Assembly: GCA_964517435.1 (NCBI GenBank)
Contig: CAZFEC010000014.1
Span: 1 to 62,223, forward strand
Reading direction: 5' to 3'
DNA: 62,223 nt
Origin: an uncultured Bacteroidia bacterium
GTDB lineage: Bacteria; CAIWAD01; BS150m-G50
The notes under the pieces were generated by a model. That model searched no databases and had not been told where the DNA came from. It was given only the letters and a program-made list of their open reading frames with translations. Position numbers and translations under genes: made by a program. Position 1 is the first letter of the stretch, and every line of letters starts with the position of its first letter. Shown here in pieces: positions 4,814 through 60,606 of this stretch.

Positions 4814-6664
4814 TTATCGCGACAGTAGGCCGTATTGCTTGAGTTTGGTATAGAGCGTCTGGCGACTGATCTGCAGCAGTCGCGAAGCATGCGACTTGTC
4901 AAAACGCACCTCCTGCAATGCGCGTTGCAGATAATCCCGCTCGAAGTCGCTGACAACCTGCCGTAACGGCTCGATTCGAAATCGTTCCGCTTCGCTGCCG
5001 GTTTGAGTCGCCTGGAAACGCTGTCGCGAGATATGCTCCGGCAGAATGTTGCTACGGGCCAGTTCCCACGCTTCCCAGAAGAGATGACGCAATTCACGGA
5101 TATTGCCCGGGTAGGTGTAGCTCTTCAGCAGCGCTATGGTGGCCGGCGCGATGATCTTCCGGTGATGATGACGCTGGTTGAGCTCCCGCAACCAGGTCCC
5201 CAGCAGCAGGGGGATGTCGTCCCGCCGCTCCCGCAAAGGAGGTACCTCAATCACAACGCCTGCAATGCGGTGCAGTAGATCGGCTCTGAACCTTCGCTCG
5301 ACGGCCAGCTCCCGGTAGGTGCGATTCGAAGCAGCCAGCAGACGGATGTCCGCGCGTACTATCCGGTTGCTTCCCACGGCGTGATACTCCCTGGTCTCCA
5401 GAAAACGGAGCAGCTTCGCCTGGATCGGAGGTGCGATCTCGCTGATCTCATCGAGAAAGAGGGTACCCCCGGCAGCCTGCTCCACCAGCCCCTCACGATC
5501 AGTGGTGGCGCCGGTAAAAGATCCGCGCCGGTGCCCGAACAGGGTGGACTCGAAGAGCGACTCCGACAGGGAAGGGCAGTGAATCGTCACCAGCTGCTGT
5601 CGGCGCCGTTCGGATTGCGCATGGATGGCGCGCGCCGTCAATTCTTTGCCTACTCCGGTTTCACCCAGAATCAGCACCGGGATTTCCGAAGCGGCGATCT
5701 GGTGGATGCGCTGGTTAACCCCGCGAATGGCCGGAGTTAGGCCGGGCAACTCCTGCAGATTGGCCAGGTGCTGCAGCTGGGGACCGGTTCCTGAGAAGTC
5801 GCAGTTGAAATCCTCGGCGACTTCCAGGATGGTCTCCACACCCAGATTGAGTTGATAAGCCCGCGCTCGCGTCGATTTCAGCAGCCGCACTGCATTACTC
5901 CTCTCGCCCAGCTGGAAGAGAGTCCGGGCCAGCAGCGCCCTGACTTCGATCAGGCGCTGATACATCTGATAGCGATCGAATATGGTGATGGCGCTTTCCA
6001 GGTTGACGACCGCCGCCCGGTTACGCTCGAGCCGCTGCTGCAGCCATCCCCGCGCGTGAGACAAACGTGCCCGCGTCAGAAGATGCGCCGCATCGCTGTC
6101 CCGACAGGGAGCGAGCAGAGCCAGGGAGGCTTCGAACCGTCCCATTTGACGCAACCGCGTGCTTTCCAGCAGATGGAATTCAAGCTGTTCGGCTGCCAGC
6201 AGCTGAGAGGGCGACGTATCAGTATCAATCACGCCCATGGGTTGCTCGATACGCTCCCCCTGTGCCAGCCGACACCACCCTTCTTCGACGAGCAACTCCC
6301 GCCGTTCGGACTCATCCTCCGGATGGACCGACTCCCGCAGCCGCTGCAGCAGTACCAGCGCTTTTGCCGCTTCACCCGCCAGCCGGTTGGCGCGGATCAG
6401 CCCCAGTAAAGCGCGATACTCCAGGTGCGGTTGACGCCGGTTCCGGCCGCTTTTCTCCAGCAGAACGATGCAATCGAGGAATGTATCACGCGCCGCCAAC
6501 GCTTCTTCGAGATGCAGGTGCGACTCACCGCGCATCAACAGGTGAGCCAGGCGGTCCGCGGAGGACAGTTTGGCAGACGTCGACTCGGTTTGGAGATGAA
6601 TGACTTGCCGGTAATCCTGCGTTCGCCAGGCGGCCTGCAGGAGTTCCGGGAGGTTTTGTGGCAT
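4814..6664 (-). CDS. Sigma-54-dependent enhancer-binding protein with TPR-like N-terminus
   Basis: Walker A GETGVGKE, GSFTGA loop, LFLDEI, YPGNIREL, C-terminal Fis-type HTH; start placed at MPQNLPE. Confidence 0.9.
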   Translation of the reverse strand: MPQNLPELLQAAWRTQDYRQVIHLQTESTSAKLSSADRLAHLLMRGESHLHLEEALAARDTFLDCIVLLEKSGRNRRQPHLEYRALLGLIRANRLAGEAAKALVLLQRLRESVHPEDESERRELLVEEGWCRLAQGERIEQPMGVIDTDTSPSQLLAAEQLEFHLLESTRLRQMGRFEASLALLAPCRDSDAAHLLTRARLSHARGWLQQRLERNRAAVVNLESAITIFDRYQMYQRLIEVRALLARTLFQLGERSNAVRLLKSTRARAYQLNLGVETILEVAEDFNCDFSGTGPQLQHLANLQELPGLTPAIRGVNQRIHQIAASEIPVLILGETGVGKELTARAIHAQSERRRQQLVTIHCPSLSESLFESTLFGHRRGSFTGATTDREGLVEQAAGGTLFLDEISEIAPPIQAKLLRFLETREYHAVGSNRIVRADIRLLAASNRTYRELAVERRFRADLLHRIAGVVIEVPPLRERRDDIPLLLGTWLRELNQRHHHRKIIAPATIALLKSYTYPGNIRELRHLFWEAWELARSNILPEHISRQRFQATQTGSEAERFRIEPLRQVVSDFERDYLQRALQEVRFDKSHASRLLQISRQTLYTKLKQYGLLSR

Positions 6665-6829
6665 GCGGTTCCTTCCAGGTCTGAGGTACCTGGAAGCAGG
6701 CTGAAGTAAGTTAATGAGGCTCCCCCTCCCCCACCAGCAAAACCCGCTTTCCTCCCTCCTCCCCGCCACAAAAACCGCCCCCACCACCCTCCATCTCCAC
6801 CCCCTCCCGCGCCCGCCTCCCGGTTATCC

Positions 6830-6858
6830 TTGCCTGCCAGTAAGAAGTGTAATACCTT
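6830..6858 (+). promoter_or_regulatory. Possible sigma-70 promoter
   Basis: TTGCCT-N17-TACCTT upstream of the acyl-CoA dehydrogenase gene. Confidence 0.4.
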
Positions 6859-8088: not shown

Positions 8089-10034
8089 TTCACGTAATCT
8101 GTTCCCGGACATATTTCCGCCAGACCGAATCGATTCGCAAGTCGTTCGGCAGCCTGCAGTTCAGCGAGCTGGACATCAGCCGGCTGGAGCGGTTTCCCTC
8201 CGAGACGATTCTGCTGTTGGATGAGGAGTACCTGCAGTCCAACGGTCAGGAGCTGGGCGAGGTGATCGCGCGGCCCAGCGACGGCAAATCGCTGCTGCTG
8301 ATCTATGCCGGTGAGCTGGAGACGGTCAGCCGTCTCGATCCCGGCCTGGAGCGGCTCTTCTTCCAGAGCGCCGACCCGCTGCCGCCGCCGCAGCTGGATG
8401 CCCTCCTGCGTCAGGCGCTGCAGCGCATCTCCACCCATCAGAACCAGCCGGAGTTCTTCAAGGCACTCCAGCTCTATCGCCGCGAGCTGCAGACCGTCAA
8501 CGAAGTGGGGCGGGCGCTTTCCGCCGAGTTGGACATCGACCGCCTGCTCAGCCGCATCCTGACTGAAACGCGGCGTATCACATTCGCCGATTCCGGCAGC
8601 ATCTACGTGACCGATCGCAGCGGTACCGAGCAGCAGCTGCGCTTCAAGACCGCCCAGAACGACTCGCTGGAGATGGAGCTGGGGGAGTTCGTGCTGCCGC
8701 TGGACCGCACCTCCATGGCCGGATACGTGGCGGTCACCGGCGAAGTGCTCAATTACCCCGACGTCTACCGCATCCCGGAATCGGCTCCCTTCCGCTTCAA
8801 CTACGAGGTGGCCGACGGCAAGACCGGTTACCGCTCCAAGTCGATGCTGCTGGTGCCGATGCGCAACCATCACCAGGAGATCATCGGCGTCGTGCAGCTG
8901 ATCAACGCCAAGCGCGCGCCGGAAACGCTGCTGAAGACCAAGGCCGATTTCGAACGGGAGGTCTGCCGCTTCACCGAACGGCACGAGGAGTTCGTCTCCT
9001 CGCTGGCCTCGCAGGCGGCGGTCGCCCTGGAGAACAGTCAGCTCTATGAGAACATCGAGGCGCTGTTTGAAGGCTTCGTCGTTGCCGCGGTCAAAGCGAT
9101 TGAACAGCGGGACCCCTGTACTTCCGGTCACTCCCAGCGTGTATCACAATTATCGCTCGCCCTGGCGGACGCGGTCTCGGCAACGGATCGCGAGCCGTTC
9201 GCCGATGTGCACTTCGACGCCGAGCAGATGAAGGAGCTCAAGTACGCCACGCTGCTGCACGACTTCGGCAAGGTCGGCGTACGGGAGAAGGTGCTGGAGA
9301 AGGCGGACAAGCTCTATCCGGATCAGTTCCTCACTCTGCAGATGCGCTTCGGACTGGTCTTCGCCACGCTGGAAGCCGGTTTTCACCGCAAGCAGGCGGA
9401 AATGCTGCGCGCCGACCCCGCCGACGAAGCCGGTCAGGAGCAGCTGCGCGCCGAATACGAACAGGAGATGCAGGAGCTGGAGGAATGCTGGGAGATAGTC
9501 CAGCAGGCCAACCACCCCAGCCCGCTGCCGGAAGAAGCGCCGGAACGGCTGCAGGGGATGCAGGAGAAACAGGTTCGTCTGCCGGACGGTACCGAAGAGC
9601 CACTGTTGACCGGAGAGGAGTGCACCATCCTCTCGATTCCGCGTGGCACCCTGACCAAGGAGGACCGGGTCCAGATCGAATCGCATGTGGATCACACCCG
9701 GGAGTTCCTGGAGCGGATCCCCTGGCTGAAGGGACTGCGCAATCTCACCCGCTTCGCCAGCGCCCATCACGAGTACCTCGACGGCAGCGGCTACCCGGTC
9801 GGTCTGAAGGCGCCTGAAATCCCGCTGGCGAGCCGCATCATCGCCGTCGCCGATCACTATGACGCCCTGACCGCTTCCGACCGTCCCTACAAGCCGGCGG
9901 TCAGCACCGAGCGCGCCCTCAAGATCATCGGTTTCGAAGTGGAAGGGGGACAGATCGATCCCGAACTGTTCCAGCTGTTCGTCGACGAGGAGGTCTACAG
10001 GGTGTTGGACGAACCGCTGGAGGAGGAAGATTAA
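8085..10034 (+). CDS. GAF + HD-GYP cyclic-dinucleotide phosphodiesterase
   Basis: GAF segment (GVVQLIN), HSQRV, LLHDFGK, HHEYLDGSGYP. Confidence 0.9.
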   Translation: MIHVICSRTYFRQTESIRKSFGSLQFSELDISRLERFPSETILLLDEEYLQSNGQELGEVIARPSDGKSLLLIYAGELETVSRLDPGLERLFFQSADPLPPPQLDALLRQALQRISTHQNQPEFFKALQLYRRELQTVNEVGRALSAELDIDRLLSRILTETRRITFADSGSIYVTDRSGTEQQLRFKTAQNDSLEMELGEFVLPLDRTSMAGYVAVTGEVLNYPDVYRIPESAPFRFNYEVADGKTGYRSKSMLLVPMRNHHQEIIGVVQLINAKRAPETLLKTKADFEREVCRFTERHEEFVSSLASQAAVALENSQLYENIEALFEGFVVAAVKAIEQRDPCTSGHSQRVSQLSLALADAVSATDREPFADVHFDAEQMKELKYATLLHDFGKVGVREKVLEKADKLYPDQFLTLQMRFGLVFATLEAGFHRKQAEMLRADPADEAGQEQLRAEYEQEMQELEECWEIVQQANHPSPLPEEAPERLQGMQEKQVRLPDGTEEPLLTGEECTILSIPRGTLTKEDRVQIESHVDHTREFLERIPWLKGLRNLTRFASAHHEYLDGSGYPVGLKAPEIPLASRIIAVADHYDALTASDRPYKPAVSTERALKIIGFEVEGGQIDPELFQLFVDEEVYRVLDEPLEEED

Positions 10035-10307: not shown

Positions 10308-12569
<2,262 letters not shown>

Positions 12570-12887: not shown

Positions 12888-13529
12888 TTGCAAATAGAAA
12901 CATTTGTGCTCGGTAGTTTCGAGAGCAACTGCTACCTGATACGATCTGACGACAACAATCCGGTCTGGCTGATCGATCCCGGCGGTGATCCGGCGAGCGT
13001 AATCGCGCACCTGGAGAGCAAGGGACTGCAGCCGGCCGCCGTTCTTTTAACCCACTGCCATCTGGATCACATCTTCGGTGTCGGCGCTTTGAAGCGCGCC
13101 TGGCCGCAGTTGCCGGTGATCTGTCCGGAAGGGGATCTGCCGCTGTACCGGAATCTCCCGGAGCAAGCGAACATGTTCGGTCTGAAGGCCGAACAGCTGC
13201 CGGACCCGGAGCGGCTGCTGCAGGATGCGGGCACGGTTTTCGAGCAGCCCTGGCCGCTGCGCGCGTTGCCGACGCCCGGCCATTCGCCCGGCAGCACCAC
13301 TTTTTGTCTCACGGCGGTGGACGGCAGCGAGATGCTCTTTACCGGCGACACCCTCTTCCGCGAATCGGTCGGCCGCACCGATCTCTGGGGCGGCGACTGG
13401 GACGAGCTGGAATCATCCGTGCGGGAGCGATTGTACGCTTTTCCCGCCACCACCCGCGTGCTGCCGGGGCACGGACCGGAGACGACTATCGGCTGGGAGC
13501 GGGAGCACAACCAGTTCTTCCGCGCGTGA
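12888..13529 (+). CDS. MBL-fold metallo-hydrolase (glyoxalase II-like)
   Basis: THCHLDH, PGHSPG, TGDTLF, PGHG; TTG start with RBS AGGAG. Confidence 0.9.
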   Translation: MQIETFVLGSFESNCYLIRSDDNNPVWLIDPGGDPASVIAHLESKGLQPAAVLLTHCHLDHIFGVGALKRAWPQLPVICPEGDLPLYRNLPEQANMFGLKAEQLPDPERLLQDAGTVFEQPWPLRALPTPGHSPGSTTFCLTAVDGSEMLFTGDTLFRESVGRTDLWGGDWDELESSVRERLYAFPATTRVLPGHGPETTIGWEREHNQFFRA

Positions 13530-13536
13530 TACAAAG

Positions 13537-13590: not shown

Positions 13591-13634
13591 GTATGGTTGA
13601 AATCATGTGATACATTTGTAATACAAAGGACGCG

Positions 13635-14009
13635 ATGATGATCGGCGTAAAAGGAATGGAACTGGTCTGGTTCTTCGTCAGCGACTGGAAGAGCGCCGTC
13701 AGCTTCTACCGTGATACACTCGGTTTCAAGCTGGTCTTCGTTGACGACGAGGAGGGCTGGGCCGAGTTCAGACCGGGCGAACTGGAAGTACGGCTGGCGA
13801 TCAAGCACTGGCGTCTCAAGAGCCCCTCCCCGCGCGGCGGCGGCGGTTGTCCCGTGATACAAGTGGAAAACCTCGATGCGACCATCGCCCAACTCCAGGA
13901 ACAGGGAGTCACCATGGCCGGACCGGTGCAGGAGGTGGAAGGCATGAAGAAGCATGTAACTTTCTACGACCCCGACGGCAATCCGATTCAGCTGTCGCAG
14001 GTCTGGTAA
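13635..14009 (+). CDS. VOC/glyoxalase family protein
   Basis: FYRDTLGF and FYDPDGNPIQL motifs. Confidence 0.9.
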   Translation: MMIGVKGMELVWFFVSDWKSAVSFYRDTLGFKLVFVDDEEGWAEFRPGELEVRLAIKHWRLKSPSPRGGGGCPVIQVENLDATIAQLQEQGVTMAGPVQEVEGMKKHVTFYDPDGNPIQLSQVW

Positions 14010-15765: not shown

Positions 15766-16824
15766 GTGAGATCCGATCTGAAGCCCCTGTCCCGTTTCCT
15801 GCTCCTGCCGCTGCACTGGCTGACGGCATGGAGTGTTCGCGCCGAGGAGGACACCGTCGAGGTCACCGTCGGCGGCCAGGCGGTACTGGAAGGGGTGATG
15901 ATGCGCTCCCGCGACGCGGTCGCCACCGCCGTCCGCCGTCAACGCGGCGATATTCTGGTCAAACTGGAGCCCTATCTGGCGCTGGCGAAACGGATCCGTC
16001 TCTGGAAACCGCCGCTACTGCGCGGCATCGCCGCCCTCTGGGAGTCGCTGACCATCGGCATGCGCACCCTTAACTGGAGCGCGGAGATCGCGACCGAGGA
16101 GGAGCGCCGGACCGAGGATGGAGCGGAACGGCCCAAATCCTGGTGGGACAGGCTGCTGGGTGTGCTGATGATGATCCTGGCCTTCGCCTTCGGTATCGGG
16201 CTCTTCATCTATCTGCCTTATCTGATCTCCGGCTTCGTTAAACCCGGCGCCGACCCGATCATCTTCCACATCATCGCCGGTACGCTGCGGGTCGCGTTGT
16301 TGATCGGCTACCTCTGGGCGATTTCACTCGCGCCCGATATCCGGCGTCTGTTTATGTATCACGGCGCCGAACACAAGACGATTGCGACGCATGAAGACAA
16401 GCAGGAGCTGACGGCGGACAACGCCGCCGCCCATTCCCGTTTCCACCCCCGCTGCGGCACCAGTTTCGTGTTGATCGTCGCCCTGTTGACGATGGTGGCC
16501 TTCATGCTGATCGACGCGCTGATCATCTGGCTGGTCGGCGACTACAACTCCGCCCTGCATCGCCTGCTCGTGCACATCCCTTTCATCCCCCTCGTGGCCG
16601 GTTTCTCCTTCGAGATGCTGCGGCTCTCCGCGCGCCACCGTGATACCTGGCTGGGCCGGCAGGTAGTGAAGCCGGGCCTCTGGCTGCAACGTATCACAAC
16701 CCGCGAGCCGGAACCGGCGATGCTGGAGGTAGCGCTCGTCTCACTGCTCGTCTCCCTCGATCACGCCATCGATCCCGAGCGCGCCACCCTGCAGACGGAA
16801 GCGGCGGCCGCGCAGCCCGGTTAG
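15766..16824 (+). CDS. DUF1385 family membrane protein
   Basis: GGQAVLEGVMM, YHGAEHK, HPRCGTSF, QRITTREP; usual position between rpmE and prfA. Confidence 0.9.
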   Translation: MRSDLKPLSRFLLLPLHWLTAWSVRAEEDTVEVTVGGQAVLEGVMMRSRDAVATAVRRQRGDILVKLEPYLALAKRIRLWKPPLLRGIAALWESLTIGMRTLNWSAEIATEEERRTEDGAERPKSWWDRLLGVLMMILAFAFGIGLFIYLPYLISGFVKPGADPIIFHIIAGTLRVALLIGYLWAISLAPDIRRLFMYHGAEHKTIATHEDKQELTADNAAAHSRFHPRCGTSFVLIVALLTMVAFMLIDALIIWLVGDYNSALHRLLVHIPFIPLVAGFSFEMLRLSARHRDTWLGRQVVKPGLWLQRITTREPEPAMLEVALVSLLVSLDHAIDPERATLQTEAAAAQPG

Positions 16825-21164: not shown

Positions 21165-21979
21165 CCTTCTACCAACGACTTCAGCAGACGATCCAGGCGC
21201 GCGGGAGCAACCTCTGCGTCGGTCTCGACCCCGATCCCGCCAAGATACCGGCCGCCTTTGCCGGCCGCAGTGACCCGGTCGCAGCCTTCCTGCGCGAGGT
21301 GATCGAAGCGGTAAGCGACGTGGCCTGTGCGTTCAAGCCCAACTTCGCATTTTTCGAAGCGCTGGGCGAGCGGGGCTGGCGGCTGCTGCACGAAGTAGTA
21401 GCGGCGGTACCCGACGATATGATCACCATCGCGGACGCCAAGCGGGGTGATATCGGCAATACCGCCAGGGCTTATGCGCGCGCCATCTATGACGAGCTCG
21501 GCTTCGATTGTGTCACGCTGAATCCCCTGATGGGCCATGACGCCATGGAACCTTTTCTCGCCTACCCGGAGCGCGGCGCCTTTGCACTCGTGTTGACCTC
21601 AAACCCCGGCGCCGCCGATTTCCAGCTCCTGCCGACCGAACAGGGCCCCCTCTACCTGCGCATGCTGCGCAAAGTGCTGGAATGGAACGAAGCGGACAAT
21701 CTCGGCGCCGTCGTCGGCGCAACGCGGCCGGAACTGATCGCCGCCATCCGCCGGGAGGCTCCCCGGTTGCCGCTCCTCCTGCCCGGTATCGGCAGCCAGG
21801 GTGGCGACCTGGCCGCGACTCTGGCGGCCGCCGCCCCCACCGCCGACGCGCTGTTCATGGTCAATGTATCACGTGCAGTTATCTATCCCACCGGCACCGG
21901 CGACTTCCAGACGTTGGTGCGGGAGCAGGCTCTGGATTATCGCGACCGGATCGCAGCAGCCTTGACGGAAACGCCATGA
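21161..21979 (+). CDS. pyrF: Orotidine-5'-phosphate decarboxylase
   Basis: CVGLDP, FKPN, DAKRGDIGNT, TSNPG, GAVVGAT. Confidence 0.95.
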   Translation: MTFYQRLQQTIQARGSNLCVGLDPDPAKIPAAFAGRSDPVAAFLREVIEAVSDVACAFKPNFAFFEALGERGWRLLHEVVAAVPDDMITIADAKRGDIGNTARAYARAIYDELGFDCVTLNPLMGHDAMEPFLAYPERGAFALVLTSNPGAADFQLLPTEQGPLYLRMLRKVLEWNEADNLGAVVGATRPELIAAIRREAPRLPLLLPGIGSQGGDLAATLAAAAPTADALFMVNVSRAVIYPTGTGDFQTLVREQALDYRDRIAAALTETP

Positions 21980-22638
21980 ACGCTACCCATCTGCAACTGC
22001 GTGAACAGCTTTCCCTTTCCATCCGGCACCAGGAGGGACGCATCCGCTTCCGTACTCAGGTAGCGGATGTGGGGGTGGACTTCTTCGCCGTCAACCTGCT
22101 CGATCTGCCGGAAGCCAGGCAGGGAGCTCTCGTAGCCGGCGACGAAGTGCGCGGTACTATCGTACGTCACGATGCCCTTTATCATTTCAGCTCGTATGTG
22201 ATCGGCGTTTTCCCGGTTGAGCGGCTGCAGTTGCTGCGGGTAGCCCAACCCCGAAACTTCTGGCGCGAACAGCGACGGCAGTTTTTCCGGGTTGAGCACC
22301 GGATTCCGGTTGTGATACAATTGGAATACCAGAACTCGGGCGCGGAACGGCAGAGCTGCACCATCAACGGCAGCATCCTCAACATCAGCGCCGGCGGCGT
22401 CAAGATACTGGCCGATCTCCCGGACGGGGTCGAACTGCAGCAGGGCGCGCATGTAATGCTCAGCTTTGATATCGAGGAGTTCAGTTTCACCGATCTGCTG
22501 GGCGAGGTGCTGCGCATCGACAAATCGCCGACACAACGCAGTTTTGCCGTCATTTTCATCGATCCGAAAATCGATACGCAGAATACCATCACCCGTTTGA
22601 ATATTCTCTACGAACGCAGGTTTATCCTGGGAGGTTGA
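21976..22638 (+). CDS. PilZ-domain protein (YcgR/flagellar-brake-like)
   Basis: QRRQFFR (RxxxR) and NISAGG ([DN]xSxxG); ATGA overlap with pyrF. Confidence 0.85.
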   Translation: MNATHLQLREQLSLSIRHQEGRIRFRTQVADVGVDFFAVNLLDLPEARQGALVAGDEVRGTIVRHDALYHFSSYVIGVFPVERLQLLRVAQPRNFWREQRRQFFRVEHRIPVVIQLEYQNSGAERQSCTINGSILNISAGGVKILADLPDGVELQQGAHVMLSFDIEEFSFTDLLGEVLRIDKSPTQRSFAVIFIDPKIDTQNTITRLNILYERRFILGG

Positions 22639-45754: not shown

Positions 45755-45763
45755 GAGCGCAGC

Positions 45764-46273: not shown

Positions 46274-46277
46274 AACC

Positions 46278-46473
46278 AAGAATCTCTCGCAAAGCACGCG
46301 AAGGACGCAAAGGAAGAAAAGACATTAATATTGTTAGGTAGAAGATGGCTTAAGCAACTGGCGCAATGAGTTAGCGACAAAAAGCGTTTCTACTCCGGTA
46401 ACACCCGGAGCCAGCTACCATCTAACCATAATTCTCTTCTTTGCGTTTCTTTGCGATCTTTGCGAGAAATCTT
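46278..46473. repeat. Inverted-repeat (MITE/REP-like) element of CGCAAAG units
   Basis: TCTCGCAAAGCACGCGAAGGACGCAAAG on the left; CTTTGCGTTTCTTTGCGATCTTTGCGAGA on the right. Confidence 0.7.
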
Positions 46474-46497
46474 ATTTTTTCCTCCCCCCTCCTTCTA

Positions 46498-46526
46498 TTG
46501 TCATTGCACCCCGAGAATAGTATTTT
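46498..46526 (+). promoter_or_regulatory. Possible sigma-70 promoter
   Basis: TTGTCA-N17-TATTTT upstream of the PLD gene. Confidence 0.4.
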
Positions 46527-46598
46527 ACCAGTATAGCCCGACCTTTTACTTGTCGATTTAACACTTATACAGCTTTCATCCACTCAGGGGAGCTCATA

Positions 46599-49025
46599 AT
46601 GCGCAAATTGCTGATCTATATCGGAGCGGCGTTCTTTCTCTCGCTGTCCAGCCTGCCCGCCGCGGTTCTGATCCATGAAGTCCACTATGACGTCATCGGC
46701 AGCGACAACGGGGAATTCGTCGAACTGTACAATAACGGCCCGGTCGATGTCGATCTCTCCGGCTGGTACTTCGGCGACGAGGAAACCGAAGGGGGCGGCG
46801 AATCGATGAACGCCTTCCCGGGCGGTACGATCATCTGCACCGAAGACTACCTCCTGATCGCCCGCGATGCGGTTGAATTCGAAGCCCACTTCGGTCTGGC
46901 GGCGGATGTCATCATGCCCTTCGCGCTGGGCAACAGCGGCGACGAGGTTATCCTGTCCCACAGCTGGTACGCCGACTACGAAGATGTGGTGGCTTTCGAA
47001 AGCGGCGTTTTCGCCGGCGTGACGCCGCATCCGGGCGTCGCCAGCGGCCATTCGCTGGAACGGCTGACGCCGACCACCGACACCGACGACTGCTCCGCAG
47101 ATTTCGCCGATATCGATCCCCCGACACCGATCGCCGCCGACTGCGAGCCGGGTCCGCCGACCCAGGGGACGATTTCCGCCTATTTCAACAGTTCAGTCGA
47201 CGCCACCTATGCCGTCTACGCACCCGCCAATGGTTACGATGACCTCGCGGCGCGTCTGGTCCAGATGATCGACGCCACCCAGGTTTCCCTCGATGTCTGC
47301 ATCTACAACCTCACGCTCAGCGAGATCTCCGATGCCATCATCGCGGCTCACAACCGCGGCGTCAGCGTGCGGGTGATCATCGAAGACGGCAACCACAATT
47401 CCTACACGCAGGCGATCGAAAATGCCGGCATCAATCTTATCGACGATGCCTACGGAAGCAATCCCGGCTCCGACCTGATGCACAACAAGTTCGTTCTGTT
47501 CGACTACCGTCTGGACGAAGGCGATGAGGATGATCAGCTCTGGACCGGTTCCTTCAATTTCACCTACTCGTCGGATGTTTATGACGACAACAACGTGCTG
47601 GTGGTTCAATCCGGTTATCTCTGCGATGTCTATCTGGACGAATTCAACGAGATGTGGGGATCCACTGGCGAAACGCCCTCCAGCGCCAACAGCCGTTTCG
47701 GAAACAACAAGCTCGACAACACCCTGCACAATGTCGTGATCGACACCACCGACGTCGAAATCTACTTCTCCCCCTCCGACGGCGCCACCTCCCACCTGAC
47801 CCAGCTGATCGCTACGGCGAACTACAACATCTACTTCTGCATCTTCTCTTTTACCCGCACCGATGTGGAGGATGCGCTGCACGCCCGTTTCAACGCCGGG
47901 GTGCCGGTGCGCGGCGTCTTCGATTACGCTCAGGGCAGTTCTCCCTATTCGGTCTACCCGGATATGGCCGGCACCGGCGCTGATCCCTGGAATCCCCCCG
48001 CCGATGTCTATATGGACGGCAACGGCTCCGGCCTGCTGCACCACAAGTATATCATCATCGATCCCCATCATCCCGCCTCGGATCCGGTGGTGGTCACCGG
48101 TTCGATGAACTGGTCCACTTCGGGCGGCTTCTACAACGATGAGAACATGATTGTGATACATGACGCGCGTATAGCCGACCAGTATTTCCAGGAGTTCGCG
48201 GCCCGCTTCACCGCCGCCGGCGGTACACTGCCGGGCGGTGACAACGATGTCACCATCACCGAGATCCAGTACACGGAGGATCCCTTAGGCGTGTCTCCCT
48301 ACGCCGGCGCGATCGTCAACACCGGCGGTATCGTCACCGGTGTTTTCAGCTTCGGCTTTTTCCTGAGTGAGGATAACGGCGCGCCCTGGAGTGGCGTTTA
48401 TGTCTACAACAACACAATCCTACCCGCCGTCGGTGACTCGCTCAGCCTGACCGCCACGGTGTTGGAGTATTACGACATGACGGAATTGAGCGACGTCACC
48501 GATTACACTATCCACAGCAGCGGCGCTACGCCGACTCCCCTCAGCCTGACCTGCGCTGAAATTTCCGCCGAACAGTACGAAGGCTGTTTCCTGCAGGTGA
48601 GCGGACTGACCGTGGTCAATCCCGATCTCGGCTACGGGGAGTGGAGCGTTACCGACGGCACCGGCACGCTGGTGGTGGACGATATGGGCAGTTACACCTA
48701 TGTCCCCGTGGTGGACGATACGATCGCGCAGCTGACCGGGCTGCTGTACTATTCGTTCGACGCCTTCAAACTGGAACCGCGGGACGATGGCGACTTCCTC
48801 TTTGAAGTGCCGGGGGTAACCGATCTGGCTGTCACCTATGACAGCGGCGTCGTCACCCTGACCTGGAGCGCGGTACCCGGCGCCGTCAGCTACAGCATTT
48901 ACGCGGCCGCGACGCCCTATTTCGATCCCGCGCCGGAGTACCATCTGGTCGACACCACCGAACTCACCTACCAGGAAGCGACGGGAGGTCTCGACCGCTT
49001 CTACCGGGTGGTGGCGGTGCACTAG
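46599..49025 (+). CDS. Secreted lamin-tail + phospholipase D/nuclease (two HKD) + OB-fold protein
   Basis: Signal peptide; EFVELYN lamin-tail motif; HNKFVLFD and HHKYIIID; Fn3-like C-terminus. Confidence 0.9.
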   Translation: MRKLLIYIGAAFFLSLSSLPAAVLIHEVHYDVIGSDNGEFVELYNNGPVDVDLSGWYFGDEETEGGGESMNAFPGGTIICTEDYLLIARDAVEFEAHFGLAADVIMPFALGNSGDEVILSHSWYADYEDVVAFESGVFAGVTPHPGVASGHSLERLTPTTDTDDCSADFADIDPPTPIAADCEPGPPTQGTISAYFNSSVDATYAVYAPANGYDDLAARLVQMIDATQVSLDVCIYNLTLSEISDAIIAAHNRGVSVRVIIEDGNHNSYTQAIENAGINLIDDAYGSNPGSDLMHNKFVLFDYRLDEGDEDDQLWTGSFNFTYSSDVYDDNNVLVVQSGYLCDVYLDEFNEMWGSTGETPSSANSRFGNNKLDNTLHNVVIDTTDVEIYFSPSDGATSHLTQLIATANYNIYFCIFSFTRTDVEDALHARFNAGVPVRGVFDYAQGSSPYSVYPDMAGTGADPWNPPADVYMDGNGSGLLHHKYIIIDPHHPASDPVVVTGSMNWSTSGGFYNDENMIVIHDARIADQYFQEFAARFTAAGGTLPGGDNDVTITEIQYTEDPLGVSPYAGAIVNTGGIVTGVFSFGFFLSEDNGAPWSGVYVYNNTILPAVGDSLSLTATVLEYYDMTELSDVTDYTIHSSGATPTPLSLTCAEISAEQYEGCFLQVSGLTVVNPDLGYGEWSVTDGTGTLVVDDMGSYTYVPVVDDTIAQLTGLLYYSFDAFKLEPRDDGDFLFEVPGVTDLAVTYDSGVVTLTWSAVPGAVSYSIYAAATPYFDPAPEYHLVDTTELTYQEATGGLDRFYRVVAVH

Positions 49026-52136: not shown

Positions 52137-53489
52137 TCAGGCTTCCTCATTGTCCCCGGCCGCGGCTTCAGCCACCGGCTGCTCGCTTTCTTCCTGGCGC
52201 AACTGCAGGATAAGACGTACTTCATCCTGGCTGAGGCCCAGGGTTTCGGCGATTTCGGCCGTACCCTTTTTCTTGTCCGCCAGCCGGTAGACCTCCTGGT
52301 CGCGCGCATAGCCGGTACTCTCCTCCGCGGGTGGAGCGGGGGGAGGCGGTTCCGGGGTATCCACCGCCGCCGGTGGCACCTCCGCTTCCGTTTCCGGCGC
52401 GGTCTCCGGCTGCTCAGCTGCGGAGGGGGCATCAGCTTCGGTTGCGGGGGAGGCTTTCGCTCCGGTTGCGGGAGTGGCTTCCGTCTCCTCCTCCGCATGC
52501 GCCTGCGCGAATCCGGCCAGGTGCGCGTGCTCCGACCAGCGGCGCCAGATCAGCCAGCCCACGCCGAACAGGACCGCTCCCGCCAGTAGTGAGAGCAGGA
52601 TGATCAGGCTCAAGTGTGTGGCGCGGCTGGGTCCGTCGGCAGTCCCGGCGGCGTCATCCCCCCGCGCTGCGAGGTCGGCTCGCTTCCCGCGCGTCCGTTG
52701 CCGGTCGCCTTCCTGTCCGGCGAGCAGACGGGTAACGGGGACCGTATAGCGGGACTGCATCAGCAACGGCTCCAGGTGCGACATTGCCAGCGACTCGATT
52801 CCGGCCGCCAGGTAGAGCGCGCCGAGCCGGTAATGCAGGGTGTCGTTGTCCGCATGCAGCGTCAACTCCTCCTCCAGGATACGGCAGGCGGTCAGTGGGT
52901 TGCCGGACGCTTCCAGGGTGGCCGCGATGGCCAGCAGTTGCTGCAGATCCTGCAGCGCGGCGGGTTCGGGTTCCGGCTTTTTACCCGCCACCGGTTGTGA
53001 TACATCCACCGGCTCGACCGTCTTGACCGGTTTCCGTACCGGTGGTGTCACGGCCTGTTCGGTACGGCTGACGGGCGGAGACACCGCGACTGTTTCCGCG
53101 CTGCGGTGAAGGAAATCGACGATGAAGCGGAAACCATTTCCCCCTCCCTGACGGAAGGCGTGTACTTCAAATACCTCGTTGACCGCGATCCGGTAGGTCA
53201 ACCGGTTCGGATAGATCTCCAGCAGGTTGATGCTGGTGACGAAGGGACTGGTCGGTTGCTGAAAGTGCTTGGCCAGCAGCTCCACCTCGCTGGTGAACCG
53301 CAGGTCGACATAACCCTCGTCCAGATGACGTTCGGTCGCTACCGGTGCCCTTTCGCTGAGATCGAAAACAATCCGGTAGTAGGTTTCATGCGGAGCGTGG
53401 CGGATGTCGACCAGACTGGGCACCGCCGCCGCGGATTGCAGCGCCAGCAGCAGGGCGATGGCCGGCGCTGTTACTCGCAGCCCGGACAT
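52137..53489 (-). CDS. Membrane protein: AMIN-like N-terminus, TPR-like helices, TM, acidic linker, C-terminal HTH-like segment
   Basis: Signal peptide, RIVFDL, TM segment, EIAETLGLSQDEVRLILQL; RBS AGAGGTG. Confidence 0.7.
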   Translation of the reverse strand: MSGLRVTAPAIALLLALQSAAAVPSLVDIRHAPHETYYRIVFDLSERAPVATERHLDEGYVDLRFTSEVELLAKHFQQPTSPFVTSINLLEIYPNRLTYRIAVNEVFEVHAFRQGGGNGFRFIVDFLHRSAETVAVSPPVSRTEQAVTPPVRKPVKTVEPVDVSQPVAGKKPEPEPAALQDLQQLLAIAATLEASGNPLTACRILEEELTLHADNDTLHYRLGALYLAAGIESLAMSHLEPLLMQSRYTVPVTRLLAGQEGDRQRTRGKRADLAARGDDAAGTADGPSRATHLSLIILLSLLAGAVLFGVGWLIWRRWSEHAHLAGFAQAHAEEETEATPATGAKASPATEADAPSAAEQPETAPETEAEVPPAAVDTPEPPPPAPPAEESTGYARDQEVYRLADKKKGTAEIAETLGLSQDEVRLILQLRQEESEQPVAEAAAGDNEEA

Positions 53490-53518
53490 GTAACACCTCT
53501 TCTGTTTTGATACCGGTC

Positions 53519-54745
53519 TCATTCCCCCTCCTTCTCCTGCGGCGGATCGGAGCGCAGATTGAGCATCCGCAGGTCGCCCAGGTACTGGACCGATTCTATT
53601 TCTTCAACCTTCTCGAATCTTTGTATCACGTCCTGAATCCGCTTGCTGTTGTCCATGATTGTCTGTACACGGTGGCGGTCCTTGTCGCTCAGCGGCGGTT
53701 CCGCTTCGTTGAGCAGCAGGTACAGCTGCCCCTGGATGGTGGTGAGCGGATTATTGACCTCGTGATTGACGGCGACGGCGGCTTCACTCAGGGCGCGGAA
53801 CTTCTCCTCGAAAATCGCCTTCTGCTGCAGGCGCCGGGTTTCGGTCATGTCGCGTGCCAGCAGCAGGGTTTGCCGGTGATGATGCGTCTCCGGCAGCGGC
53901 GCCACCGAAAGGTCGACCGGCAGCTCCTGCTCCACATCGTTCAGGAGCGTGACGCTCAGGCGTCCCGGCTCCCGGCTGGCCAGCAGTTCCTGCAACTGTT
54001 GCTGCTGCCCGGTGTCGGTCAGCAGCTCCAGGAATTCACGGCGCAGAAACGCATCCGGCCTGAATCCGAGCTGCTCCACGGCGGGATTGGCGAAGTCGAT
54101 CCTGAATTCGGAGTCGAGCACGATAATCGCATCCTGCGCATTGCTGATCAGGCTGTCCTGAAAATCGCGGGTGCGGCCGATTTCCTGGTAGAGCAGCGAA
54201 TTCTGCAGGGCGACGGCGGCCTGGTTGACCGTATAGAACAGGGTATCCAGCCTGGCCTGCGTGATTGTATCACGCGCCGCCGCCGTTGTGCAGATGAAAA
54301 AACCGATCCCGCGTCCTCCCACCGCGAGCGGCACCACCAGGTAGGAAGCGGTATCCTCGACTTCCGAACGCTGTTCCGGCGGCAGATCGATATCGGGCAC
54401 CAGCACCGCCCGTCGTTCGCTCTGCACCCAGTCGATGATGCCGTCGCTGATGAGGCCGGGAACCGCGGTGGCGAGCTTCCGTTCGGGGCTGCCGAAACAG
54501 ACCGGCTCCTCCCCCTCCGTCAGCAGGTAGACTGCGCAGGACTGGTATTCGACCAGACGGGCGACCACTGCGAAGAGAGCGGTGACCACGTTGTCCGGGT
54601 CCACCGCCGCCCGGATCGTCTCCGAGAGCTGCTGAATCTCCTTGAACTCGTTCAGCGACTCCCGCAACGCGTCACGGGTGCGGCAGGCGGCCTCCAGCTC
54701 TGCGCGCAGCTGCTCAGTCTCGGTGTTGTTTTCTGACTTGCTCAT
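53519..54745 (-). CDS. GAF + PAS + HisKA (DHp) protein lacking HATPase
   Basis: GAF, PAS (DAIIVLD...FANPA), VNHEVNNPL; start placed at MSKSENN. Confidence 0.85.
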   Translation of the reverse strand: MSKSENNTETEQLRAELEAACRTRDALRESLNEFKEIQQLSETIRAAVDPDNVVTALFAVVARLVEYQSCAVYLLTEGEEPVCFGSPERKLATAVPGLISDGIIDWVQSERRAVLVPDIDLPPEQRSEVEDTASYLVVPLAVGGRGIGFFICTTAAARDTITQARLDTLFYTVNQAAVALQNSLLYQEIGRTRDFQDSLISNAQDAIIVLDSEFRIDFANPAVEQLGFRPDAFLRREFLELLTDTGQQQQLQELLASREPGRLSVTLLNDVEQELPVDLSVAPLPETHHHRQTLLLARDMTETRRLQQKAIFEEKFRALSEAAVAVNHEVNNPLTTIQGQLYLLLNEAEPPLSDKDRHRVQTIMDNSKRIQDVIQRFEKVEEIESVQYLGDLRMLNLRSDPPQEKEGE

Positions 54746-54842
54746 AGTGCAAGATTCCGGTGCAGCGCAAACGGCCGCTGCCGGAGCAGAGGCCCGCGTG
54801 TTGTGTGTGATACAAACGGGATGTATCACGCTGCCATCTCGG

Positions 54843-56939: not shown

Positions 56940-56942
56940 GGT

Positions 56943-57267: not shown

Positions 57268-58401
57268 TCAGCGCTCCACCTTGAAGCCCCGCTTGTCCAG
57301 GAGCCATTCCGCAATCCGCAGCGGGTGGACGCTGTCGATGTTCTCCGGAATGGACTGGCCGTTGCCGAGGAAGCTGAATACCGGTTTCACCTCGCAGGCC
57401 AGGTTGAGCAGATTCCCCAGGGTGGCCGTCTCATCCAGCTTGGTCAGGAGGATGCGGTTGAAATTAACCTGCCGGTACTCCTGCACCATCCGGCGCAGGT
57501 CGGAATACTTGGTGGAAAGCGGCAGCACCAGATGGGTTTCCATCGGCGCCGACAGCTCCAGCATTCCCTCCAGCTGCCGCATCCTGCTCGTCGACCGCCA
57601 GGATACACCCGGCGTGTCGATCAGGATCACTTCGCAGTTCTGCAGCTGGCGCAGGGCCGGTTTGATCTCCCGTTCCCGGTAGACCAGCTTTAACTCCGCC
57701 TTGACGATGCCGGCGAACGTCCGCAGCTGCTCGGTGGCGGCTATCTTGGTAGTGTCCAGACTGAGGATGCCGAGACGGCGACCGCCGAAGAAATCGCGAT
57801 TGGCGGCCAGCTTGATCAGACTCACCGTTTTGCCGGCGCCGGTAGGTCCGATGAAAGCCAGCTTGACCGGCGTGCCCTGCGGTGCGGAAGGCGTGCCGGC
57901 CGCCTTGAAACGCCGGGCGATCCAGCCGGCGCCGCGGTCCCGCATCAGGCGTCGCGATCGTAGTTCGCGCGGGGCGGCGTTCAGTTGCAGATCCGCGAGC
58001 AGATCCTGTATCACATCACCGCTCACTTCCTCCTGCCGCAGTTGCCGGGCGATATCGTTCAGCGCCGGCCAGGCAGTGCCCGGACCGGAACCGCTCATCT
58101 GCTGGTTCAAGCCCTGGATGGAGCGCGACAGCTTCTGCATTTCGTCCTGCAGCTGCGCGCCGCCCGATCCGGCGATCGCCGCGCCTCCCGGCGCTCCGGC
58201 GGTGAACACCCCCTCCGGCAGGTTGAGCCCGCCGCCGCTCTCCGCTTCGCCGACGATCACTTCGTAGCTCCAGCCGTACTCCGGTCCGGCGGGATGGCTC
58301 TGGCGTCCCGATTTGATGATGACTGCCTCATCGCCGTAGTCCCGCTTGATGCGTTTCATGATGTCGCGGTAATCGGTGCCGGTGTAGGATTTCATCTCCA
58401 T
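57268..58401 (-). CDS. flhF: Flagellar SRP-type GTPase FlhF
   Basis: GPTGAGKT, AATEQL, IDTPG, TKLDE, GQSIPE; follows flhA. Confidence 0.88.
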   Translation of the reverse strand: MEMKSYTGTDYRDIMKRIKRDYGDEAVIIKSGRQSHPAGPEYGWSYEVIVGEAESGGGLNLPEGVFTAGAPGGAAIAGSGGAQLQDEMQKLSRSIQGLNQQMSGSGPGTAWPALNDIARQLRQEEVSGDVIQDLLADLQLNAAPRELRSRRLMRDRGAGWIARRFKAAGTPSAPQGTPVKLAFIGPTGAGKTVSLIKLAANRDFFGGRRLGILSLDTTKIAATEQLRTFAGIVKAELKLVYREREIKPALRQLQNCEVILIDTPGVSWRSTSRMRQLEGMLELSAPMETHLVLPLSTKYSDLRRMVQEYRQVNFNRILLTKLDETATLGNLLNLACEVKPVFSFLGNGQSIPENIDSVHPLRIAEWLLDKRGFKVER

Positions 58402-58461
58402 CTCTTACTCCAGGTCGCGGGCCGGAACGTCGCCCGCCCACGCCGCGTTGTGTGCTTCCTC

Positions 58462-60606
58462 TTACGGGTTGAGCACGGTTGTGTCCTGGCCGCTCTCGCC
58501 GCCGGCCAGGCTCTCGACGGTTTCCTCGCCGCCGGTGATACTCCTGTGCGTCACCACGCCGATCGACTCAACCTCGACGGTCGGTACCAGCTCGCTGTAG
58601 GAGACCAGGCTGATGTCCGGCATGGTGCTTTCCAGCAGCTTCCGCAGGTAAGGTCGCACGGTCGGCGCGGTCAGCAGTACACTCCGTTTCCCCTGCGTCG
58701 AGAGCTGCTCGGCGAAGTCCCGGACCTGTTTGACGATAGCGGCGAACATCTCCGGCGTCAGGCTGAGTTCACGTCCCTGGGCGGTCTGTTCCAGCTCGCG
58801 GCTGAACATCTCCTCCAGGACCGGATCCAGCGTCATGCAGTAGATCCGGCCGTCCTCGTGCTGGTAGAGCCGGGTGATCGTCTGGTTCAGTGAGAAGCGG
58901 GCGTATTCGGTCAGGATCTCCACATCTTTGGTGGAGGGCGCGTAGTCGGTAAGCGTCTCCAGGATCGTCGTCAGATCGCGGATGGGCACACTTTCCTTCA
59001 ACAGCCGCTGCAGCACTTTATGTATCACGGCCAGGCTGAGCAGGTTGGGGTAGAGCTCCTCGATCAGGGCCGGGTTATCCTTCTTGATGTTCTCGATCAG
59101 GTTCATGGCGTCCTGCCGGCCGACGATGCGCCAGGAATTCTTTTGTATCACGTCGACCAGGTGCGTCGCCAGTACCGCCGGCGATTCGATGACGGCGTAA
59201 CCCAGCAGCTCGGCCCGCTCCCGGCTCTCTTCCCGGATCCAGGTGGCCGGCATGCCGAAGGTCGGTTCCGTCGTTTTGAATCCCTCGATCTCCTCGCCCG
59301 CTTCCCCCGCGTTGAGCGCCAGGTAGTACCCGACCTTGATTTCGCCCCGCGCCACTTCGATGCCGCGGATCTTGATCGTGTACTCCTCCGGTTTCAGCTG
59401 AATGTTGTCGCGGATGCGGATCGGCGGGATGATGATGCCGAGATCCAGCGCCTGTTGTTTACGGATCAGCGTGATACGGTTTAGCAGATCGCCGTTCTGT
59501 TCCACATCCACCAGGGGGATGAGACCGTAGCCGATCTCGATCTCCATCGGATCGACATAGAGAAAGTCTTCGATCTTGCCTTCACTCACTTCTTCCTCCT
59601 GCGGCTGTTCCGGCGCTTCCTCCGGCACCTCGCGGCCGCGGCGCAGGCTGAACGCCACGACGCCGACCGTGAGCGAAAGGATCAGGAAGGGAATCGTCGG
59701 CAGTCCCGGCACCAAGGCGAAGAACAGCAGCACCGCCGCCACAATGAAGAGCGGGCGGACGCGGCTGAGCAGCTGCGAGGTGATGTCGAAACCGAAATTG
59801 TTCTGCGCCCCGGCCCGGGTCACGATGATACCGGCCGAGGTGGAGACGATCAAGGCCGGGATCTGGTTGACCAGACCGTCGCCTACGGTCAGCAGGGTAT
59901 AGTTGGAGATCGCTTCGTTGAAGGTCATCTTCAGCTGCAGCATGCCGATAGCGAAACCGCCCAGGATGTTGATCGCCGTAATGATCAGGCTGGCGATGGC
60001 GTCACCCCGTACGAACTTGGAAGCGCCGTCCATCGCACCGTAGAAATCCGCTTCCCGACTGATCTTCTCACGCCGCTGTCGCGCCTCCTGTTCGTCGATG
60101 ATGCCGTTGTTGAGGTCGGCATCGATCGCCATCTGCTTACCCGGCATCGCATCGAGTGTGAAGCGCGCCGCCACTTCCGCCACCCGGCCGGCACCCTTGG
60201 TGATCACGATGAAGTTGATCAGCACCAGGATCAGGAAGACGATGAAACCAACGATGTAGTTGCCCTTGACCACGAAACCGCCGAACGCCGAAATCACCTG
60301 CCCCGCGTAGCCGTCGCCCAGGATCAGACGCGTGGAGGCTACGTTCAGAGCCAGCCGGAACAGCGTGATCATCAGCAGCATACCGGGGAAGATGGAGAAC
60401 TCCAGCGGCTCGGTGTTGTAGATCGCCACCAGCAGTACGGTCAGACCGATGGCGATGTTAAAGGCCAGCAGTACATCCAGCAGCGCCGGGGCCAGCGGGA
60501 TGACCATCATCACCAGAATCCCGACCACTCCGATCGAGATCAGCACATCGCTGCGGCGGGCCAGGGTGGAAAAGGTGCTGTTGCGGAGGGTGATGCGATC
60601 GTCCAT
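58462..60606 (-). CDS. flhA: Flagellar export protein FlhA
   Basis: RLALNVASTRLIL, RVAEVAARFTLDAMPGKQM, GAMDGASKFVRGD. Confidence 0.97.
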   Translation of the reverse strand: MDDRITLRNSTFSTLARRSDVLISIGVVGILVMMVIPLAPALLDVLLAFNIAIGLTVLLVAIYNTEPLEFSIFPGMLLMITLFRLALNVASTRLILGDGYAGQVISAFGGFVVKGNYIVGFIVFLILVLINFIVITKGAGRVAEVAARFTLDAMPGKQMAIDADLNNGIIDEQEARQRREKISREADFYGAMDGASKFVRGDAIASLIITAINILGGFAIGMLQLKMTFNEAISNYTLLTVGDGLVNQIPALIVSTSAGIIVTRAGAQNNFGFDITSQLLSRVRPLFIVAAVLLFFALVPGLPTIPFLILSLTVGVVAFSLRRGREVPEEAPEQPQEEEVSEGKIEDFLYVDPMEIEIGYGLIPLVDVEQNGDLLNRITLIRKQQALDLGIIIPPIRIRDNIQLKPEEYTIKIRGIEVARGEIKVGYYLALNAGEAGEEIEGFKTTEPTFGMPATWIREESRERAELLGYAVIESPAVLATHLVDVIQKNSWRIVGRQDAMNLIENIKKDNPALIEELYPNLLSLAVIHKVLQRLLKESVPIRDLTTILETLTDYAPSTKDVEILTEYARFSLNQTITRLYQHEDGRIYCMTLDPVLEEMFSRELEQTAQGRELSLTPEMFAAIVKQVRDFAEQLSTQGKRSVLLTAPTVRPYLRKLLESTMPDISLVSYSELVPTVEVESIGVVTHRSITGGEETVESLAGGESGQDTTVLNP

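Follow-up and report, generated by a model that had tools for sequence, protein, structure and literature searches.

The stretch of DNA considered here (the window) is the whole of a 62,223-nucleotide contig, CAZFEC010000014.1, from an uncultured bacterium known from marine metagenome assemblies; it bears the label C14 among the 98 contigs of a 3.19-Mb assembly (genome G000), which is 94% complete. Scattered along the window is an asymmetric octamer, TGTATCAC or, on the other strand, GTGATACA, with 35 exact copies, 19 on the plus and 16 on the minus strand, the first starting at 6482 and the last ending at 59151, whereas 100 dinucleotide-preserving shuffles averaged 0.78 copies, the highest count being 4. 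This exact count agrees with the original prediction, drawn from the letters of the window, which had reported at least 35 copies divided 19 to 16 by orientation; the flanks that it described are also there, with A or G after the core in 33 of the 35 copies and A or T before it in 28. The general class that it proposed was right as well: this is a DNA-level, strand-symmetric, frame-independent and lineage-specific word, more like the DNA uptake sequences (DUS) and uptake signal sequences (USS) than like Chi, the FtsK-orienting polar sequences (KOPS) or the highly iterated palindrome HIP1.

The GC content of the window varies between 0.54 and 0.64 per 5 kb (59.6% over the whole genome), and coding sequence holds 30 of the 35 copies. 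Genes were called with a crude in-house scorer of open reading frames (ORFs), which yielded 2252 genes and 86% coding DNA for the genome, with some errors. The copies can be compared with the aligned places of two congeners, G001 and G002, whose DNA is about 70% identical to that of G000. The first copy (AATGTATCACGC, 6482..6489, +) lies in the coding sequence 4814-6787(-), the second (CGTGTATCACAA, 9140..9147, +) in 8085-10034(+), and the next two (TTTGTATCACAG, 10957..10964, -; TATGTATCACGC, 11384..11391, +) share 10308-12569(+). A fifth copy (13526..13533, -) runs across the TGA stop of ORF 12888-13529, as had been predicted, and is followed by an intergenic one (13607..13614, -), about 20 bp upstream of ORF 13635-14009, and by two more on the minus strand, 13711..13718 and 13854..13861, inside that coding sequence, 13635-14009(+). 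The exact octamer is retained in both congeners at 16355..16362 (+), in 15766-16824(+), and at 21865..21872 (+), in 21161-21979(+). Between these, an RNase R-like gene, 18834-21164(+), carries a copy at 20062..20069 (+) that is missing from the aligned place in G001 and G002 and a lineage-specific one at 20596..20603 (+). Two minus-strand copies come next, 22312..22319 in the called coding sequence 21937-22536(-) and 23494..23501 in 23256-24020(+), the latter with one mismatch in G001.

A subtilase gene, 24681-26339(+), holds an inverted pair whose starts are 11 bp apart, 24909..24916 (-) and 24920..24927 (+), the second arm reading TGTCTCAC in both congeners, and a further copy at 25563..25570 (+) retained in G002 only. 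The adjoining M14 peptidase gene, 26339-28651(+), has copies at 26877..26884 (-), retained in G001, and 28349..28356 (-), and the long coding sequence 28665-33221(+) has four: 28800..28807 (-), 30941..30948 (+) and 32892..32899 (-), the last two retained in G001, and 31932..31939 (-), retained in G001 and G002. The copy at 34116..34123 (+) falls outside the gene calls, in the uncalled ORF 33829-34779, and single copies follow at 35086..35093 (+) in 34542-35672(+), 40557..40564 (+) in 39975-40760(+), 48153..48160 (-) in a PLD-like gene, 46599-49025(+), and 52997..53004 (-) in 52137-53522(-). Two plus-strand copies, 53622..53629 and 54266..54273, belong to ORF 53507-54736(+) or 53519-55024(-), and a second inverted pair, 54807..54814 (-) and 54822..54829 (+), with starts 15 bp apart, is intergenic by the gene calls. 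The last three copies are all on the plus strand: 58007..58014 in 57268-58401(-), and 59021..59028 and 59144..59151 in flhA (FHIPEP), 58462-60606(-).

Two stretches of the window, 1-6481 and 40565-48152, are without any copy of TGTATCAC. The first 5 kb have a GC content of 0.54 and a 1065-residue ORF (1545-4742) without a Pfam match, and this copy-free start may be acquired DNA. Regarding the host, the window encodes the flagellar export protein FlhA (58462-60606), and the peptidase at 26339-28651 has a weak match, below the Pfam cut-off, to a type IX secretion sorting domain, of which a clear match exists on contig C11; together they point to a motile member of a lineage of the Fibrobacteres-Chlorobi-Bacteroidetes (FCB) type.

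The word is by no means a peculiarity of the window. The genome carries 1030 copies of TGTATCAC, 486 and 544 by strand, compared with about 57 expected from base frequencies and 85.5 from an order-3 Markov model, and no other 8-mer in G000 reaches so high a z-score. When the copies themselves are masked, the expectation falls to 68.4 (order 3) or 51.0 (order 5), so that the excess amounts to 12-20 times the Markov expectation and to 8 times that of a protein-preserving codon shuffle. Coding sequences contain 841 of the copies and the remaining 189 (18%) lie outside the calls, with a mildly higher density between genes (0.33-0.47 per kb) than within them (0.31). Shuffling synonymous codons within genes, which keeps both the protein and the codon usage, leaves only 106 coding copies, and shuffling the order of codons leaves 32. 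Since the enrichment survives this codon-preserving control, which was run as a refutation check, the prediction that protein sequence does not explain the word stands.

The shape of the word is sharply bounded. Its information is confined to A or T at position -1 (weakly at -2), the 8-nt core, a purine at +8 and a weak pyrimidine preference at +9 and +10, the favoured 3′ flank of the core being G and then T; alignment of the G000 copies showed no information more than about 2 nt to either side of the core and no longer repeat element. Palindromic derivatives show no excess (GTGATATCAC, 3 copies; TGTATCACGTGATACA, 0 perfect copies), and a hidden dyad or a longer element was rejected on both grounds. 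While the perfect word stands 15-20 times above expectation, most of its one-mismatch neighbours stay at 0.35-1.3 times, and the only enriched ones in G000 are CGTATCAC (3.2x), TGTCTCAC (2.4x) and TGTGTCAC (2.0x). The original prediction had also listed seven one-mismatch variants; all seven are real, among 39 in the window, but as a class such neighbours are not enriched, with 1798 in the genome against 1772 expected.

The word ignores the direction of genes and of replication. By gene strand, 426 of the coding copies are in the same and 415 in the opposite orientation, and all five stop-free frames are used, as had been noticed within the window and is now borne out for the whole genome. Strand counts are homogeneous among contigs (chi2 34.7, df 40, p 0.71). 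A second genome, G005, which is a single complete 3.72-Mb contig with 3149 copies, has the word in 20 of 20 evenly spaced 20-kb windows, at 5-31 copies each; its dnaA gene lies at 1.94 Mb, the signs of the GC skew mark the replichores, and by strand the sampled halves contain 76/74 and 91/125 copies. Neither confinement to a zone nor replichore polarity is therefore seen, in line with the original prediction. The inverted pairs that it pointed out do occur but are a minor component: among the 1030 copies, 15 adjacent pairs with starts within 30 bp are inverted, and 9 are direct.

How strongly this pressure acts can be read from the peptides that the word is able to encode. In G000 the word occupies 209 of 380 V-I-[HQ] sites, though ATA makes up just 7% of isoleucine codons, together with 200 of 297 [LMV]-Y-H and 68 of 80 C-I-T sites (477 of 757 for these three best classes), 189 of 863 [CGRS]-D-T sites and 148 of 898 x-V-S-[HQPLR] sites. 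The encoded peptides are themselves 1.9-2.4 times more frequent than expected from amino-acid frequencies, while the same residues in reversed order are at 0.9-1.3 times, and therefore the pressure alters proteins as well.

Occupancy is far from uniform along the genome. In rich contigs 90-100% of the peptide sites carry the word (19 of 21 in the window, 12 of 12 in C46, 28 of 30 in C5), as opposed to 11-38% in poor ones, and occupied and empty sites come in blocks, with 268 runs against 343 ± 12 under a global shuffle and 306 ± 10 under a shuffle within contigs. The rich contig C46 (28 copies in 23 kb), on which polA, mnmE and genes for transporters and peptidases lie, shows synteny with both congeners. 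The poor contig C10 (4 copies in 78 kb) encodes a type I restriction enzyme, a STAND NTPase, a Fic-like protein and glycosidases, and hardly anything in its 40-60 kb stretch can be matched to G001 or G002; the poor stretches of C21 and C18 have only scattered, non-syntenic matches there. Non-syntenic accessory DNA thus accounts for three of the four poor stretches tested. Moreover, genes with low GC content at third codon positions (GC3) have 0.13-0.19 copies per kb, compared with 0.38 for typical genes. Poor contigs may possibly be mis-binned, although the complete genome G005 has the same sixfold heterogeneity in density.

Individual sites are conserved to a degree that the background is not. 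Over the aligned sites of the window and C46, the exact octamer is retained at 15 of 33 in G001 and 12 of 35 in G002, whereas arbitrary 8-mers are retained at 7.1-9.2% (binomial p 2e-9 and 4e-5, respectively). This is 4-6 times the retention of arbitrary 8-mers, and the remaining sites differ by one or several bases. In a 78.7-kb sample, G001 has a GC content of about 51%, compared with 59.6% in G000, and the word is still its top 8-mer. The two congeners also share 27-55 bp repeats, 80-100% identical, at dozens of loci (e.g., L137:6183-6400; L191:7536-7805 and 11179-11437); some occur in both orientations, and they look like small mobile or repetitive extragenic palindromic (REP)-type elements common to the genus.

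Beyond the genus, the word was followed in 12 species genomes of the phylum, all from one class and divided between families f1 (three genomes) and f2 (nine). The relatives' genomes were read in part and the enrichments computed on the sequence fetched (about 0.5 Mb for G005). Family f1, that is, genus g1, has 1030, 1004 and 524 copies, the last in a 67%-complete genome. Family f2 ranges from 3149 (G005), 2460 (G004), 809 (G008) and 408 (G007) down to 137 (G009), 131 (G003), 99 (G011), 45 (G006) and 29 (G010). As controls, the reversed word has about 5-40 copies counting both strands, and 29 unrelated genomes have 10-109 copies of TGTATCAC. Over the order-3 expectation, the word is enriched 12x in G000, 8x in G001, 17.5x in G005, 21x in G004, 15x in G008, 7x in G007 and 1.8x in G009, with no enrichment in G006, and in both families it ranks first among the 8-mers. 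From one genus it has been lost.

The lineages also differ in how strictly they keep to the word. Family f1 is strict, G005 adds TGTGTCAC (8.7x), TGTAACAC (8.2x) and TGTGACAC (6.0x), G004 enriches TGTAACAC, and G007 enriches a broad set of variants at 4-10x, all within the common frame TGT-NN-CAC. Judging from these sequences, the breadth of variants by lineage resembles dialects. A switch of dialect to TGGATCAC in G007 and G009 (1380 and 984 copies) was considered and rejected, because this word is built from preferred codons, which makes its raw counts misleading, and it is just 4.3x and 2.2x over the order-3 expectation in 200-kb samples. Nor was a replacement found in the motif-free G006, whose top words are (ATCGNN)n microsatellites and not a dispersed word; in this genome of 67.6% GC, loci L141-L152 carry long hexamer microsatellites of this kind, including runs of GGTATC, GGGATC and GCTATC. 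A separate dispersed repeat, with GGACGGTGCCAAGGAC, occurs some 20-35 times in 200 kb of G007 (loci L227-L236). FlhA and DnaA place bacteria of the KSB1, Calditrichota and Zhuqueibacterota types nearest among named relatives; the loci fetched from them showed no high-density word. The lineage itself was traced in marine and seawater metagenomes (five Logan contig entries).

These observations are best explained by a process that reads double-stranded DNA, blind to strand, frame, transcription and replication, and that brings the word near to saturation in long-resident DNA. The best reading that we can offer for such a process, with a probability of roughly 40% in our own estimate, is a signal for DNA uptake or self-recognition analogous to DUS and USS. 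A surface receptor of the transformation machinery (type IV pilus, ComEA, ComEC) would prefer fragments bearing the word, homologous recombination of these fragments would spread and maintain it, through molecular drive, selection for conspecific DNA or both, and recently acquired DNA would lack it. We infer from sequence patterns that uptake takes place, that it favours the word and which protein would read it, and our other functional statements have the same footing.

The uptake reading is placed first because a pattern like that of DUS and USS is found together with an encoded uptake machinery. ComEC is present in 11 of the 12 phylum genomes, ComEA, a secretin and a pilin were detected too, and DprA was found in all five genomes searched. 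In G000 itself the pilB-pilC-pilM-pilO-pilQ-pilT cluster is complete and includes two small pilin-like ORFs and a 586-residue ORF, none of a known family; proteins of 148 and 206 residues and a pilin of 152 residues are also among the products of the cluster.

Several observations weigh against this reading. G006, which is free of the motif, has a matching set of competence and pilus genes, gene for gene; the type IV pilus, ComEA, ComEC and DprA thus do not discriminate between rich and poor genomes. Of the 14 ORFs of the G000 pilus cluster, 13 have counterparts in both G005 and G006, among them, in G006, the two pilin-like ORFs, and the short overlapping ORF u121 has one in neither; comparing G000, G005 and G006, we found no difference in the cluster that could explain the word. 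The ComP_DUS family (PF16732) had no match in five genomes, but equally none in 14 control genomes, so that its absence carries no information. The organisms are uncultured, and transformation in them is hypothetical. In addition, few copies are intergenic (the 189 of 1030 mentioned above) and the inverted pairs within 30 bp are only the 15 already counted; according to one recent preprint, about half of all DUS and USS, and more than 90% of the inverted ones, lie in terminators (bioRxiv 10.1101/2025.10.24.684340).

The distribution of the word over the core genome is awkward for an uptake signal too. On C11, 43 kb with dnaA, dnaN, recF, gyrA and beyond (23.6-67 kb), of typical GC3, are free of copies, and so are the syntenic 33 kb of G001 (C1:32-65 kb); the dnaA regions of G005, G004 and G008, in the other family, have a normal density. 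DUS, by contrast, are biased towards genome-maintenance genes, according to the same preprint (bioRxiv 10.1101/2025.10.24.684340). The type IV pilus cluster is likewise poor, with 1 copy in 14 kb in G000 (C34), 2 in 15 kb in G005 and 4 in 13.7 kb in G004, and a comparison of cross-family sharing found only the one site in G000 and two in G005; 7 copies lie in the 4.8 kb adjoining the cluster in G005. DNA age alone does not account for this mosaic, as the empty core blocks are left unexplained by it. Furthermore, DnaA is only 40-45% identical between two families that have an identical core of the word, a depth of sharing that goes beyond the known stability of DUS and USS dialects and is more like that of HIP1.

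The sites are also clustered, a further point of the same kind: the coefficient of variation of the gaps is 1.83, short gaps are twice as numerous as a Poisson process would give, and there are 10-bp tandem arrays. One of these lies in G000 (C11:23535-23651), in the 790-bp spacer that separates dnaA from an M1 peptidase gene, where three tandem doublets of GTGATACA, with 10 bp within and about 49-50 bp between doublets, comprise five exact copies and a last variant, GTGATACG; an inverted repeat (GGCGCGA/TCGCGCC) holds the first doublet in its loop. The cluster, on the otherwise motif-poor C11, occurs in G000 only, with 2 copies in G002 and none in G001 within 1 kb upstream of dnaA. Among viral contigs, 27 matches to the 10-bp tandem doublet were seen, a number judged to be about that of chance by a rough guess, the size of the collection being unknown. 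Two of them are iteron-like arrays in phage replication regions and are uninformative about this lineage. In one, the IMG/VR contig L255, seven copies of the same 8-mer fall within 230 bp (4832-5058), like the iterons of an origin, in a phage module with a single-stranded-DNA-binding protein, a family A polymerase, a VapE-like primase-helicase and an SNF2 helicase; the array is probably a chance product of how the search was set up.

The strongest competitor, to which we give a somewhat lower probability than to uptake, takes HIP1 as its model: an abundant, sequence-specific chromosomal protein, with a role in nucleoid architecture, domain marking or repair, would bind the word, and each site would be under selection for reasons unrelated to uptake. 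In favour of this proposal, the word is an octamer over-represented 12-21 times, its sites are conserved between genomes above background (15 of 33 and 12 of 35 against 7-9%), and it occurs across the phylum, some lineages having variants and others lacking it. The uptake genes are the same in rich and poor genomes, and a 10-bp tandem array adjoins dnaA in G000. Above all, blocks of tens of kb are saturated or empty, the core dnaA-gyrA block and the pilus cluster among them, which domain-specific binding explains more naturally than does the age of the DNA. However, HIP1 and its variants are palindromic, whereas TGTATCAC is asymmetric and its palindromic forms are not enriched; the binding protein of this proposal is hypothetical, and copies are only mildly enriched between genes. 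Most of the poor regions tested are accessory DNA, which a process dependent on history explains equally well, and the empty dnaA block is not conserved in the other family.

Considerably weaker, and in our view improbable, is the idea of a by-product of biased repair, in which a context-specific mismatch correction or a methylation-linked ratchet of the very-short-patch type would turn near-matches into the word. Work on HIP1 has put forward a ratchet of the repair type for its origin (PMC5861425), and the sharp definition of the word, with the perfect form at 15-20x and most neighbours at 0.35-1.3x, fits such a process. Nevertheless, the one-mismatch class from which the word would be drawn is not depleted (1798 against 1772), and a genome-wide bias of repair would not spare conserved core blocks. 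An asymmetric target of 8 bp would also be unusual among known cytosine methylases. Very-short-patch repair in particular was rejected since the presence of Vsr does not track the motif: the gene is absent from the rich G000, G001, G002, G005 and G008 and present in the poor G006 and G003.

The original prediction had also pointed out that the core is one mismatch from a parS half-site, TGTTTCAC, a likeness extended by the favoured 3′ G and T, and had suggested a ParB/Noc-type segregation or nucleoid-occlusion site. This link does not hold, and we consider such a function very improbable. G000 has one ParB_N gene and no paralogue, as well as a single canonical palindrome TGTTCCACGTGGAACA (C20:40437), on a different contig from parB (C3); the head-to-head 16-mer of the word has 0 perfect copies and 3 with two mismatches; TGTTTCAC is enriched in no genome (0.4-1.4x; 0.4x in G005); and the word has 1000-3000 sites round the chromosome rather than a few near the origin. 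A polar signal for recombination or translocation, either Chi (RecBCD/AddAB) or KOPS/SRS (FtsK), has still less to commend it: an 8-nt length and a density of one copy per 3 kb do recall Escherichia coli Chi, but polarity is missing (p 0.71; 76/74 and 91/125 in G005), gene direction has no influence (426/415), and RecC is absent from all three f1 genomes and present in all nine f2 genomes, rich and poor. A variant DnaA box, with copies along the chromosome titrating the initiator, is just as hard to credit, despite the five exact copies and one variant arranged as three 10-bp doublets upstream of G000 dnaA, because a canonical TTATCCACA or TTTTCCACA (up to one mismatch) lies within about 1.5 kb of dnaA in 12 of 12 genomes, the motif-free ones included, and the word cluster, found in G000 only, is not conserved. 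Even taken together, these last three proposals are improbable.

In the literature, our searches found uptake sequences only for Neisseriaceae and Pasteurellaceae and HIP1 only for cyanobacteria. No report of the word was found, and among the matches listed by a full-text search on both 8-mers there were only matches of the primer type, supplements being outside its scope; this negative does not prove that the word has never been described, and it accords with the original prediction, which had not recognised the word from any described lineage. If the uptake reading is correct, the word may represent a third independent system of DNA uptake or self-recognition in bacteria, the first outside the Proteobacteria and from an uncultured marine FCB-type phylum, a larger claim that we put forward with more hesitation. 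It would be an 8-nt word conserved through a phylum, saturating nearly all permissive codon contexts of native DNA, diversified into dialects and decayed completely in one genus, and it would act as a natural marker of native versus acquired DNA.

The interest of the word goes beyond its assignment. Sequence-biased uptake is known from two proteobacterial families only, and the one comparable octamer, HIP1, has been without a known function for decades. We now have a third, unrelated and asymmetric word, which uses more than half of its synonymous opportunities, and 90-100% of them in blocks taken to be native. The 12 genomes, which span rich (G000, G001, G002, G004, G005 and G008), intermediate (G007) and weak or empty states (G009, G003, G011, G006 and G010), make up a comparative system for what creates such words, and the protein that reads this one could therefore be findable by phyletic profiling and testable in vitro without culture. 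On the practical side, the word may help to tell native from acquired DNA and could aid the binning or checking of metagenome-assembled genomes of this lineage.

Among known systems, Chi, KOPS, parS and Noc-binding sites (NBS), matS and DnaA boxes are likewise short, sequence-specific sites scattered over chromosomes, but the word departs from their traits of polarity, palindromy, low copy number, confinement to a zone and clustering at the origin. HIP1 (GCGATCGC) comes closer. It is described as a cyanobacterial octamer over-represented 15-300-fold, conserved between genomes and spread through the phylum with lineage variants, for which the authors favour a role in chromosome architecture (PMC5861425). 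Both are conserved octamers with lineage variants spread over a phylum, the word being over-represented 12-21-fold, and they differ in that HIP1 is palindromic and the word asymmetric. HIP1 has reportedly been linked to orphan methyltransferases (Elhai 2015).

The word resembles the USS of Pasteurellaceae in its overall pattern and in its influence on which codons and peptides are used, an influence that USS are also said to have (Findlay and Redfield 2009). USS have a 9-nt core and AT-rich flanks over some 30 bp, whereas the information of the word ends about 2 nt past its core; the predicted receptor of USS is reportedly ComN/PpdA, in a published proposal. Regarding the DUS of Neisseriaceae, the sequences are unrelated and the core of DUS is longer (10-12 nt against 8); the word apparently has few copies in terminators, has few in inverted pairs and is missing from origin-proximal maintenance genes of genus g1, and its host is not a proteobacterium but a member of an uncultured FCB-type phylum, known from its sequence alone. 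DUS are read by the minor pilin ComP, and their lineages reportedly have dialects (Frye 2013). Uptake-sequence sites are conserved between species (PMC2397512; bioRxiv 10.1101/2025.10.24.684340), and the spacing of DUS has been shown to agree with the length of recombination tracts (PMC2397512). In the rest of their features DUS and the word are alike: both are short, non-palindromic words found on both strands, within genes and in all frames, with copies in the hundreds or thousands per genome, conserved sites and lineage variants, in genomes that encode a type IV pilus machinery. The preference of DUS for core over acquired DNA has a partial parallel in the word, which is scarce in the accessory stretches compared but also in the dnaA-gyrA block and the pilus cluster.

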